Positions 5,009 to 7,729 of a stretch of DNA of 64,000 nt are shown one piece after another. Origin of the DNA: an uncultured delta proteobacterium. Lineage in GTDB: Bacteria; Desulfobacterota; Binatia; Binatales; Binataceae. The notes beneath the pieces are model-generated. The model did not search any database and had not been told where the DNA came from. It saw nothing but the letters and a program-made list of their open reading frames with translations. The position numbers and the translations under genes are program-made. The stretch lies in contig CAWCDG010000002.1 of assembly GCA_963794325.1 (NCBI GenBank), positions 608,001-672,000 of the forward strand, written 5' to 3'. Every line of letters starts with the position of its first letter. Position 1 is the stretch's first letter.

Positions 5009-6307
5009 ATGATCTCAAAACTAATCGACCAAATTATAGAACGCGATCTTCAGGATTTAATCGAGTTACGTATCGCTGAGAGAAAAACGCTCGATTACAA
5101 GCGCGACCTTCCCGCCAGGACTCCTACAGATAGAGATAAATTCCTAGCTAATGTGTCCTCCTTCGCGAACACTTCGGGAGGGGATTTAATCTATGGGATC
5201 GAAGCACCCTCCGGAACTGGAGAGCCGACTTCTATTCCGGGGTTGGACCTTCCGAATCCTGAGGAAGAGAAATTACGCTTGGAGCAGTACCTTCAGTCAG
5301 GCCTACGTCCTACTCTTCCACGCCACGATATTCACTATTTTAGGTTGAACTCGGGCCGCTACGTCCTAATCGTTCGTGCGTGGCAGAGTTGGATAGGACC
5401 GCATCGTCTGGGCGAGTATGGGGCGTTTTATGCGCGAAATTCGGCGGGCAAGTTTCAACTCGACGTTGCTCAGCTTCGGCAGGCATTTGGTCTTTCCGAT
5501 TCAATCTCTCAGAGGATGGGCGCTTTTCGGGCCGATCGTATTTCAAAGGTCTATAGCGACGATCTCCCGGCCCCAATCGACGAGGGTCCCCGGCTTCTAA
5601 TTCATATTATTCCGCCTTCTGCATTTGCTCCATTTGTCCAGTTAGATTTAGCGGATTCTCTACGGAAGGCGTTCTCCGACAGTGGCGACAATTTCGGCTG
5701 GAAGAGTTTCGAACCATTTTCGCATACTTTTTCTTGGGATCAGTTTGTCAATTTGGAAGGGCCGGTCGTTATCCCCACGGCGGCCGATGGTCGAGCAGCG
5801 GGCAGATCTTACGTTCAGATATATCGAACTGGAGTGCTCGAAGCACTTTGGCTGCTCCCATACAGGAGGTTTCAATATAGTCCAGGGGAAGAGCGATCCG
5901 GCATCCGGGGTGACGGATGGTTACCAAACCTTATCGAGCTTCTGCGAAAATATATGATAGGTCTGAATCGACTCGGCGTCTCTCCTCCCTTCTTTGTGTT
6001 TTTTACTTTTCTTTCAATCAAAGAGTTCTACCTCTTCGGGCCGAGCGGAAGTGGTACGCATCGTCCCTTCAACCGAGATCAGATCTTGCTGCCAGAGATC
6101 TACGTTGAGACTATTCCGGACGATATCAGGCCGATGATCCAACGATCACTCGACATGGTTTGGAACGCTATAGGTGCTGAGGTGAACCCATACAATCGGG
6201 AATCCCTAATGTTGCTCTGCAATCGCGGCGCGCGGTTGTCCCTCACCCGACGCACGGGGACGTGCGTCGGCCTTGTATGTTGCGGTCAAAGTCCGAAGAT
6301 GAAGTAG
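5009..6307 (+). CDS. Schlafen/AlbA_2 domain protein (low GC, horizontally acquired)
   Basis: AERKTLDYK, VSSFANTSGGDLIYGI and PHR..FYARNSAGK motifs; visibly AT-richer than flanks; C-terminal tail reads through a REP into the IS110 left end. Confidence 0.88.
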   Translation: MISKLIDQIIERDLQDLIELRIAERKTLDYKRDLPARTPTDRDKFLANVSSFANTSGGDLIYGIEAPSGTGEPTSIPGLDLPNPEEEKLRLEQYLQSGLRPTLPRHDIHYFRLNSGRYVLIVRAWQSWIGPHRLGEYGAFYARNSAGKFQLDVAQLRQAFGLSDSISQRMGAFRADRISKVYSDDLPAPIDEGPRLLIHIIPPSAFAPFVQLDLADSLRKAFSDSGDNFGWKSFEPFSHTFSWDQFVNLEGPVVIPTAADGRAAGRSYVQIYRTGVLEALWLLPYRRFQYSPGEERSGIRGDGWLPNLIELLRKYMIGLNRLGVSPPFFVFFTFLSIKEFYLFGPSGSGTHRPFNRDQILLPEIYVETIPDDIRPMIQRSLDMVWNAIGAEVNPYNRESLMLLCNRGARLSLTRRTGTCVGLVCCGQSPKMK

Positions 6308-6465
6308 GACGAGGGCGCGGCAGGCCGATTCGGCCTAGGTCGATAGAGACCGAGGGAGAGCGTGGTCGCCGCGCCCATAACTCCGGCCAGGAGCCCGAAC
6401 AGTCGCTGGGGCGGCGCACGGCGCAGAGCCCGAATCGCGCAAGGATGGGCGGTGCCGGAACCCAT
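6285..6465 (+). ncRNA. Putative IS110 bridge RNA (target-binding and donor-binding loops); ends approximate
   Basis: Stem GGGCGCGGC/GCCGCGCCC encloses TCGGCCT (6330-6336) and GGGAGAG (6354-6360), matching the target; second loop holds ACAGTCGCT (6399-6407) and CAAG (6440-6443), matching the donor junction. Confidence 0.8.
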
Positions 6466-6477
6466 GGAGGCGGTGGG

Positions 6478-7425
6478 ATGCAAGCAGCAGCGGTGGTGGT
6501 CGGGATCGATGTGAGCAAGCGCACGCTGGAAGTGGCGTTGTCCAGCGGTGGCGGCTTCAGCGTTACCAACGACGAGGACGGGATCAGCGAGATGCTGGCG
6601 CGGCTGCGGCCAAGCGGGGCTGCGCTGGTAGTGCTGGAAGCCTCGGGTGGATATGAGAGCCCAGCCTACCTGGCGCTGTGGGAGGCGGGGGTGCCGACTG
6701 CGCTAATCAATCCGCGCGACGCCTATCACTTCGCCCAGGCCAATCGGCAATTGGCTAAAACCGATCAGCTCGACGCGCGCGGGTTATGTGAGTTTGGCTT
6801 GCGCATGCAGCCCGCACCGTTGCCTCCGCCGGAGGCGGCGGATGAAGAACTCAAAGCCCTGGCCGTGCGCCGGCGCCAAGTAGTCAAGATGCTGGCGGCG
6901 GAGCGCACCCGGGTGCAACAGGCGCCGCGCTCAGTGCGGTCCAGCGTCAAGCGCATCGTCCGCGCGCTGGAGCGCGAGCTAGGTGCGGTCGACCATCAGA
7001 TCGAACAACGACTGCGGAACAATCCGCGCCTGGCGCACCGCTGCGCGCAACTCGAACAGGTGCCGGGACTGGGGCCGGTGACCGGCGCGATCCTGGTCAG
7101 CCGGCTGCCCGAGCTGGGTCGGCTCGGGCCCAAGCAGATCGCGGCGCTGGTCGGAGTCGCACCGTATGACCATCAAAGCGGTGAGTGGCGCGGGCGTAGC
7201 TCGATCTTCGGCGGCCGCGCCGAGGTGCGCAGCGCCCTGTATATGGCCACCCTGTCCGCGATTCGCTGTAACCCGGTGCTGCGCAGCTTTTATCGCCGGC
7301 TGCGGGCGGCCGGTAAACCGGCCAAGGTCGCGATCATCGCAGCCATGCGCAAGCTGCTCGTCATCCTCAACGCGATGTTCAAAACCAACTCGCCCTGGAG
7401 GCCTCCATGCGCCATCACCGTGTAG
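6478..7425 (+). CDS. IS110 family DEDD recombinase (transposase)
   Basis: GIDVSK, VLEASG, KTDQLD (DEDD); GVAPYDHQSG catalytic Ser; GGAGG RBS before ATG 6478. Confidence 0.96.
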   Translation: MQAAAVVVGIDVSKRTLEVALSSGGGFSVTNDEDGISEMLARLRPSGAALVVLEASGGYESPAYLALWEAGVPTALINPRDAYHFAQANRQLAKTDQLDARGLCEFGLRMQPAPLPPPEAADEELKALAVRRRQVVKMLAAERTRVQQAPRSVRSSVKRIVRALERELGAVDHQIEQRLRNNPRLAHRCAQLEQVPGLGPVTGAILVSRLPELGRLGPKQIAALVGVAPYDHQSGEWRGRSSIFGGRAEVRSALYMATLSAIRCNPVLRSFYRRLRAAGKPAKVAIIAAMRKLLVILNAMFKTNSPWRPPCAITV

Positions 7426-7427
7426 AT

Positions 7428-7505
7428 AACCGGGTTGCCCACAAGTCCACAGGCGGGGTCCTTCCTTGGACCCCACAGCCTGTGGACCCTGTGGGCAACC
7501 CGGTT
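7428..7505 (+). other. Long hairpin in the IS110 right end
   Basis: AACCGGGTTGCCCACA...TGTGGGCAACCCGGTT outer stem with inner GTCCACAGGC/GCCTGTGGAC and GGGGTCC/GGACCCC. Confidence 0.75.
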
Positions 7506-7729
7506 CCCTTGATTCCCAACACAGTCGCTCTCCCCATTGAGGGCGAGGCGAAGAAGGAGCCGGGATTCTTGGCTTCGCTCTAGAATGACACAAAGGCGGA
7601 ATCTTGAATCGCGCGCAAAAAATGCGCGCTGGACAAGGTCCCTCTCCTTAAATCCTCTCCCGTCGGGAGAGAGGAAGAGACGCCGTGCAGTTATGCAAAG
7701 GTCTCCGAAGGGAGAGGTAACGAGACTCG

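Follow-up and report, generated by a model that had tools for sequence, protein, structure and literature searches.

The stretch of DNA analyzed here (the window, 64,000 nucleotides of contig CAWCDG010000002.1 from an uncultured delta proteobacterium) carries, on the plus strand at positions 6274-7529, an element of the IS110 family of insertion sequences (IS). The element is 1256 bp long including the CT core at its right end, is intact, has a CT core on both sides, and is inserted in a palindrome that resembles the repetitive extragenic palindromic (REP) sequences of bacteria. Its assignment to the IS110 family, IS110 group, as an intact insertion sequence of the IS621 type is given a probability of about 0.9. 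The features of the element and its target are as follows, with functional names taken from the bridge RNA model of IS621.

6240-6271 (+): REP-like target, left part; CCCTCACCC, the stem-loop GACGCAC-GGGGAC-GUGCGUC, then GGC (repeat comparison, structure scan)
6272-6273 (+): left-junction CT core (target copy); 21 of 21 close copies likewise have CT just before TGTATGTT
6274-7529 (+): IS110-family element, 1256 bp with the right CT core; blastn against relatives spans base 1 to 1256
6276-6281 (+): TATGTT, -10 half of the predicted junction promoter, 17 bp from the -35 half; TAT... stands here in 44 of 51 distinct junctions
6291-6310 (+): predicted small 5' stem-loop, GUCC...GGAC (single-sequence fold)
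6313-6376 (+): target-binding loop module; outer stem 6313-6326/6364-6376, inner hairpin 6338-6341/6348-6351 (RNAalifold, covariance-model alignment)
6328-6336 (+): left target guide (LTG), ATTCGGCCT; from position 3 to 9 it reads as the left target TCGGC with the CT core (compared with CGTCGGC+CT)
6354-6362 (+): right target guide (RTG), GGGAGAG, the reverse complement of CT+CTCCC, then CG (6361-6362); 7/7 in 22 of 22 close copies
6393-6450 (+): donor-binding loop module; stem 6393-6396/6447-6450, inner stem 6409-6412/6428-6431 (covariance-model alignment)
6399-6407 (+): left donor guide (LDG), ACAGUCGCU (as DNA ACAGTCGCT), identical in sequence to the right end 7521-7529
6434-6445 (+): split right donor guide (RDG); AU (6434-6435), a CGC bulge, G (6439), CAAG (6440-6443), then GA (6444-6445), in the clade pattern AU..GCAAG
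6466-6470 (+): GGAGG ribosome-binding site, 7 nt 5' of the ATG (read from the sequence)
6478-7425 (+): recombinase gene, 315 amino acids, stop codon included (PF01548, PF02371, NF033542, IS621 8wt6)
7428-7505 (+): near-perfect long right-end hairpin that separates the stop codon from the -35 half; -69 kcal/mol, z -9.4, with a stability that none of 200 shuffles attains
7509-7514 (+): TTGATT, -35 half of the predicted junction promoter, at a fixed distance of 15 nt from the end
7521-7529 (+): left donor ACAGTCG plus the CT core, shared by the close copies
7530-7553 (+): REP-like target, right part; CTCCCC-AUU-GAGGGCGAGG (repeat comparison)

Boundaries and Copies of the Element

At the left junction, GTGCGTCGGC-CT (6272-6273) is followed at 6274 by the element start TGTATG, reading TGTATGTT. 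At the right junction, ACAGTCG (7521-7527) runs into CT (7528-7529), so that the element end reads AACACAGTCG-CT, and CTCCCC follows from 7530. A scan of one genome per species gives 26 related loci, of which 21 are close copies with 74-98% amino acid identity in the recombinase: one genome has five at 97-98%, a second has 11 at 92-93%, and two more between them have five at 74%. In blastn with 6274-7529, the close copies align from base 1, and the 97% and 74% groups end at base 1256. All 21 close copies have TGTATGTT directly after ..CT and end in ACAGTCGCT followed by CTCCC; together with the window copy, CT-CTCCC stands at the right junction in 22 of 22. With identical ends in 21 of 21 close copies, the comparison leaves no free choice of boundaries. 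The original prediction, made from the letters of this DNA, had described an IS110 element with a decodable bridge RNA and proposed that other copies be examined for common ends and flanks; the copies do share the ends and the right flank CTCCC, and the junctions, stem, and guides all lie where it had placed them.

The right-end hairpin (78 nt) has similar counterparts in three relatives (L024, L026, and L028). In the 92% group, this hairpin alone is swapped for an unrelated one in the same place, from the stop codon to the -35 half. The 78-nt hairpin might shield the junction promoter as a terminator-like block, or serve as a site for protein binding. The recombinase frame is interrupted by stop codons in two of the relatives, L026 and L028 (51-53% amino acid identity, from the genome that also has L024), and the LDG of L028 is one base off its own right end; both look like decaying copies. 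They are excluded from the protein alignment and retained as seeds for the RNA model.

The Recombinase

The frame at 6478-7425 is the sole long frame with family support. A longer frame from 6262 was considered and rejected as an upstream extension through the noncoding end; the proteins of relatives begin at the ATG. Both Pfam domains of the family are present well above their cut-offs, namely the N-terminal, RuvC-like DEDD_Tnp_IS110 (PF01548; residues 8-148, 83.1 bits against 29) and the C-terminal Transposase_20, which holds the conserved serine (PF02371; residues 190-273, 69.2 bits against 21.3), and NF033542, the equivalog that NCBIfam names "IS110 family RNA-guided transposase," matches with 229.7 bits (cut-off 140). 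The best solved relatives are the IS621 recombinase (PDB 8wt6; 125 bits, E 3.1e-35, residues 7-307 on 9-318) and the ISCro4 transposase (PDB 9t56). In IS621, the catalytic residues are described as D11, E60, D102, D105, and S241 (PMC11208158), and their aligned counterparts here are D11, E54, D96, D99, and S234, the last of which lies in YDHQSGEW and aligns with the SG of IS621. All five are invariant in seven of seven aligned proteins, down to 40% identity. The earlier statement that the DEDD residues and the catalytic serine are intact agrees with this alignment.

Structure of the Bridge RNA

Comparison of related left ends supports the reading that the left end encodes a bridge RNA, upstream of the gene, with two internal loops, one target-binding and one donor-binding. 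In the window copy, GGGCGCGGC (6313-6321) pairs with GCCGCGCCC (6368-6376), and RNAalifold on ten left ends gives the stem 6313-6326/6364-6376, the inner hairpin, and a second module of two stems. A covariance model was built from eight seeds and 25 pairs, with all four guide strands left unpaired, and was searched against 90 sources (the window, nine genome loci, and 80 metagenome loci). It gives 82 matches, 81 of which are full-length, on the plus strand, and just upstream of the gene; the sources that lack a match mostly have too little sequence upstream of the gene. The divergent relative L027 (40% amino acid identity) gives no match despite sufficient sequence and is also misaligned by MAFFT; its guides were read by eye alone.

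Aligned, the 81 distinct rows have 98.2% paired cells, and compensatory change is seen in 24 of the 25 pairs. Helices 1-3, in the target loop, are 94.8-98.9% paired with 16 of 17 pairs changed on both sides, and helices 4 and 5, in the donor loop, are 97.2% and 99.4% paired with both sides changed in eight of eight pairs. None of 500 shuffles reaches the observed level, and sliding the partner strand by 1-3 columns lowers pairing to 32-53%. It must be set against these counts that they come from an alignment fitted to the structure of the model, which favors that structure; the gap between the observed pairing and the controls is large enough that the helices are safe. The single-sequence fold of the left end (z -2.09, 6 of 200 shuffles as good) is weak evidence taken alone. 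Rfam has no family on the plus strand of the bridge RNA in the window, nor, at E values up to 0.01, in eight relatives.

Guides, Flanks, and Ends

Each loop of the predicted RNA carries two strands that match DNA at the junctions. The original prediction had scored the LTG as matching seven of nine positions of target and core. The count is right; positions 1-2 never track the target, so that the working guide matches in full. The same source had identified the RDG as CAAG, which is present at 6440-6443 as a portion of a larger split guide, AU...GCAAG, with handshake bases. The 3' side of the donor loop reads GAAUCGCGCAAGGA. In IS621, the RDG is described as split, with A157-U158 and C162-G165 paired, G161:dT12 forming a wobble, and U159 and U160 flipped out (PMC11208158). 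This scheme fits the window copy, with AU paired with the AT of TGTAT, G6439 opposite T, CAAG paired with CTTG, and a bulge of 3 nt. The CG (6361-6362) that follows the RTG is complementary to donor positions 6-7 (CG), and G6444, which follows the RDG, is complementary to target position 7 (C); complementary bases after both right guides are the handshake positions described for IS621 (PMC11208158).

The agreement of guides with flanks extends across the relatives. Left ends are set by a conserved terminus motif and right ends by the LDG match of each locus downstream of the gene, so the ends are set independently of the target guides. For the RTG, 10 of 81 rows are unusable (no right end in five, a flank core other than CT in four, a loop too short in one). 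Among the 47 distinct guide/flank pairs, 31 match at five of five noncore bases, 10 at four of five, and six at fewer. The mean match is 4.40 of 5, compared with 1.60 (sd 0.16, maximum 2.17) when flanks are permuted among loci with composition kept, and none of 2000 shuffles reaches it. Agreement is 87-94% at positions 1-7 and drops to 22% and 23% at positions 8 and 9. The long 7-nt RTG, which the original prediction took for a peculiarity of this copy, is instead a property of the whole clade. According to Durrant et al. (PMC11208160), some orthologues have longer RTGs.

For the LTG, 66 loci have a left flank, and 44 distinct pairs remain after exclusions. The mean match is 4.36 of 7, compared with 2.45 (sd 0.17, maximum 3.07) in shuffles, 0 of 1000 of which reach it. 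Identity at positions 1-7 is 0.25, 0.32, 0.55, 0.77, 0.75, 0.86, and 0.86, and in shuffles 0.19, 0.26, 0.28, 0.36, 0.28, 0.38, and 0.70; at positions 1-2, no tracking of the target is seen in any part of the clade.

Where targets change, guides change with them. The LTG is AATTGCCCT with flank GCTTGCCCT in L021 and L023, and ATTCGGCCT with CGTCGGCCT in the window; the RTG and flank are CACGAAG and CT-TCGTG in L027, GTCGAAG and CTTCGAC in L090, and CCGTTAG and CTAACGG in L067. The donor guides follow the ends in the same way: in L027, guide and end both read ACAGCCGC, a T-to-C change shared by the LDG and the right end, and in loci whose left end starts AGTAT, the RDG CTAG replaces CAAG.

Two further patterns are seen at the core. 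In L024, L034, L104, L070, and L098, all among the rows dropped from the LTG test, the left guide strand ends in ..CCCG or ..CCCA rather than ..CCT, with a flank core that is still CT, which leaves a noncomplementary guide base facing the core T. Many LDGs end in C where the element end has T (ACAGTTGCC compared with ACAGTTGCT).

Taken at face value, the clade appears to read about 5 + CT + 5 bases. Several counts weigh against so simple a left-hand code. The LTG test leaves aside 20 of the 66 loci, those whose guide or flank lacks a terminal CT in the expected register. In the 22 close copies, all of which match the RTG at 7/7, LTG positions 3-9 match at 7/7 in nine, 6/7 in two, 5/7 in eight, 4/7 in one, and 3/7 in two. 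In one genome, eight of 11 copies lie at sites with at least two LTG mismatches, seven of them in the same CTTCATCCT site with two; of the two mismatches at these sites, one would form rG:dT, a kind of pair described in IS621 (PMC11208158), and the other is a true mismatch. From these mismatches it follows that either the left guide is tolerant or the structure of the repeat helps. It is tentatively proposed, at just short of even odds, that the soil clade (at least 80 loci) has a near-symmetric natural code of 5+CT+5, with a full 7-nt right guide and the first two left-loop positions unused, in contrast to the asymmetric 7+CT+2 of IS621.

The Predicted Junction Promoter and Mobility

When 7529 is joined to 6274, as in a circular form of the element, the sequence TTGATT, 17 bp, TATGTT arises. 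The first hexamer is always 15 nt from the end and, among 51 distinct junctions, is TTGACT in 19, TTGACA in 13, TTGACC in three, and TTGATT in two (the window copy included), so that TTGAC[T/A/C] or TTGATT stands at this fixed distance in 37 of 51. In IS621, a promoter is reported to form at the junction of right end and left end (PMC11208160), and the junction motifs of the window copy and its clade match the layout of that promoter.

Together, these features suggest the following mechanism, in which RNA expression, the circle, the chemistry of strand exchange, and present activity would be as in IS621. The left end would yield a bridge RNA of about 175 nt, extending, by analogy with IS621, from near 6288 to about 6465, and this RNA would guide the 315-amino-acid DEDD/Ser recombinase. 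In the target-binding loop, UCGGC+CU (6330-6336) would read the left target's bottom strand and GGGAGAG (6354-6360) the right target's top strand; in the donor-binding loop, ACAGUCGCU (6399-6407) and AU/GCAAG (6434-6443) would read the joined ends of the element. Through recombination at the CT core, the circle would have entered the REP-like palindrome in its 5' arm, and the joining of 7529 to 6274 would create, as TTGATT-17 bp-TATGTT, the promoter for the bridge RNA.

The family has probably moved recently, as the near-identical multicopy relatives in two other genomes support: one has five copies with 0-3 differences and the other 11 copies with 0-16 differences, and 14 of the 16 frames are open. 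Whether the window copy shares this mobility is less certain. It could be a correctly decoded but now immobile copy, inserted once and making too little bridge RNA or circle to move, which is a serious possibility at less than even odds. The observations that weigh on this side are several. The element is present as one copy in its genome of 4.45 Mb (10 contigs, 85% complete). Its -35 hexamer TTGATT is weaker than the TTGAC[T/A/C] of 35 of the 51 junctions, and with TATGTT makes eight of 12 consensus matches where the promoter scan asks for nine. A scan of 6100-7700 finds no sigma-70-like promoter in the integrated state; integrated IS621 loci are reported to express bridge RNA weakly, and excision of IS621 to be inefficient (PMC13626964). 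Of 20 public sequencing runs, available as contigs rather than reads, four were examined, and their contigs contain no circle-junction joint.

Against immobility stand the open frame with its five catalytic residues intact, the match of all four guides to the element's own flanks and ends, and the 95% DNA identity to multicopy relatives. One contig from one DNA run also joins 6271 to 7528 as in an empty site, at a depth of 6.6, with 30 letters on the shorter side and possibly letters in between. This joint is a hint only and not independent support, because the run may be the source sample. Contigs from an RNA library cover 6271-6818 and 7096-7496 at 90-95% likeness; because they may represent relatives or DNA carry-over, they say nothing about expression of the window copy. 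On balance, the chance that the window copy is mobile at present is put at a little over one half, and the description of it in the original prediction as a probably active orthologue is plausible.

The REP-Like Target

The target belongs to a repeat that is abundant in the same genome. The composite unit CCCTCACC-N(5-45)-CTCTCCC occurs 68 times, in most cases with a loop and then GGG[A/C]GAGG after it, and less than one occurrence is expected by chance (our base-composition estimate). Two unoccupied REP-like copies, of the same subfamily as the occupied one, carry exact CGTCGGCCT-CTCCC, and the empty site reconstructed in the original prediction is therefore a real sequence type. The composite REP alone is enriched; the exact 12-mer target is not over-represented in the genome, with two found and about 1.4 expected (again by base composition). 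The element interrupts the CCTCTCCC...GGGCGAGG palindrome in its 5' arm; immediately before the insertion point stands a GC stem-loop at 6249-6268 (stem 6247-6270 in the structure scan), and the repeat is located between convergent frames.

This setting raises the question of what chooses the site. The structure of the repeat, a hairpin next to or across the site, might be what mainly sets the target, with the left guide in a minor role. The unequal performance of the two target guides speaks for such an account (the RTG is perfect in 22 of 22 copies, whereas the LTG has at least two mismatches in 11 of the 22), as does the position of the site in the 5' palindrome arm, where the GC stem-loop abuts the left target. 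In ISPpu10, moreover, a target stem-loop is reported as a second determinant (preprint 10.64898/2026.03.19.712850). The RTG 7-mer also recurs (at least 6/7, within 30 nt downstream, in the other palindrome arm) in 13 of 62 distinct loci, where shuffles average 5.1 (sd 2.0) and 13 is attained in one of 1000; the recurrence is a weak effect mostly confined to the GGGAGAG group. With LTG positions 4-7 still tracking the flank in 75-86% of pairs, a leading role for repeat structure is rather unlikely. Within the 5+CT+5 reading, the left guide appears to tolerate mismatches inside REP repeats, and the repeat's own hairpins may therefore add to site choice.

That the left end is a mere 5' leader controlling translation of the recombinase, with flank matches that are accidents of a C-rich target, is highly improbable: its location directly upstream of the ribosome-binding site and a single-sequence fold that beats shuffles by a modest margin would suit a leader, but the idea is already contradicted by the guide and flank data, in which the guides of relatives (L027, L090, and L067) differ and follow their own flanks and composition-preserving permutation of flanks never reaches the observed agreement.

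Two neighboring features complete the description of the locus. A second palindrome, CCTCTCCC-GTC-GGGAGAGAGG, lies unoccupied at 7630-7672, about 100 bp downstream of the element; its left side, TTAAATC, is a poor fit to the LTG. Upstream, a frame at 5009-6307 (+) encodes a Schlafen AlbA_2 domain (39.1 bits) and, as called, runs through the REP-like repeat into the element, with a putative stop.

Comparison with Known Elements

Apart from the junction promoter, a candidate in this copy, all features of the IS110 group that can be tested on sequence are found here: both protein domains, the NF033542 match, a CT core with site-specific insertion, a two-loop RNA, and complementary loop strands. 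The likeness to IS621 (Escherichia coli, PDB 8wt6), as that element is described in PMC11208160 and PMC11208158, is extensive. It includes the same two protein domains with DEDD and Ser residues, a left-end RNA with target- and donor-binding loops, a CT core, a REP-type target, a promoter (predicted here) at the junction of right and left ends, an RDG in two parts that includes a G:T position, and handshake bases. The IS621-type architecture claimed in the original prediction has thus held up. The IS621 donor string that it quoted has 0 occurrences in the main text of PMC11208160.

There are also differences from IS621. The proteins are distant relatives (125 bits, E 3.1e-35), and no IS621 DNA can be aligned, because a blastn search with the left end (distant mode) against 5,426 E. 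coli genomes gives no match. The RTG is by nature 7 nt here and 4 nt in IS621 as described; the LTG here tracks five (weakly six) positions plus the core, whereas IS621 is described as pairing all nine; and the RDG bulge is 3 nt (CGC) here, whereas IS621 flips out two (U159 and U160). The target repeat here belongs to another REP family. Among solved structures, the second-best relative is the ISCro4 transposase, aligned over residues 7-307. By description, ISPpu10 and ISPpu9 of Pseudomonas putida resemble the element in that they insert into REP-type intergenic repeats, and the GC-rich stem-loop reported 5' of the ISPpu10 target as an extra determinant has a candidate counterpart here at 6249-6268.

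The sole Rfam family that touches the bridge RNA region is RF02234, the small RNA sX15 of Xanthomonadaceae, which matches 6305-6425 on the opposite strand with 32 bits, below its gathering score of 55. On plasmid pXCV183 (L110, NC_007507 114500-119000), sX15 scores 150.9 bits at L110 1879-2037 (+), and the bridge RNA model matches 1887-2025 on the minus strand with 53.5 bits (E 3.3e-10). Directly downstream on that strand lies ATG AAT GGC ATC GGG ATT GAT GTG.. (MNGIGIDV..), a truncated IS110-type start, and the annotated 98-amino-acid open reading frame beside sX15 has no Pfam match. The sX15 family also matches the minus strand of the L067 bridge RNA with 39.2 bits. These alignments make sX15 look like an IS110 bridge RNA in reverse complement. 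Schmidtke et al. (PMC3300014) report a complementary RNA, asX7, along with 10 homologues in Stenotrophomonas maltophilia; a literature search on sX15 in Xanthomonas and on asX7 found no paper linking sX15 to a bridge RNA.

Significance for the Family

The mechanism, REP targeting, and longer RTGs are already in print (PMC11208160 and PMC11208158), and beside these accounts no new question is opened. What is new is an orthologue and a clade with another guide geometry (a 7-nt RTG, a shorter working LTG, and a 3-nt RDG bulge) and another REP family, although the clade may already be catalogued among published orthologues. A cleanly decodable and apparently intact orthologue is added to the family, together with a clade of soil-metagenome relatives whose sequences by themselves reveal each component of the IS621 model (both loops, the split RDG, the handshake bases, and the predicted junction promoter). 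In practical terms the gain is modest: the right guide is naturally 7 nt long and the working left guide is shorter, and both could be compared with IS621 and IS622 in assays. If the 5+CT+5 code is true, the clade would offer a naturally different guide geometry for the engineering of bridge recombinases.

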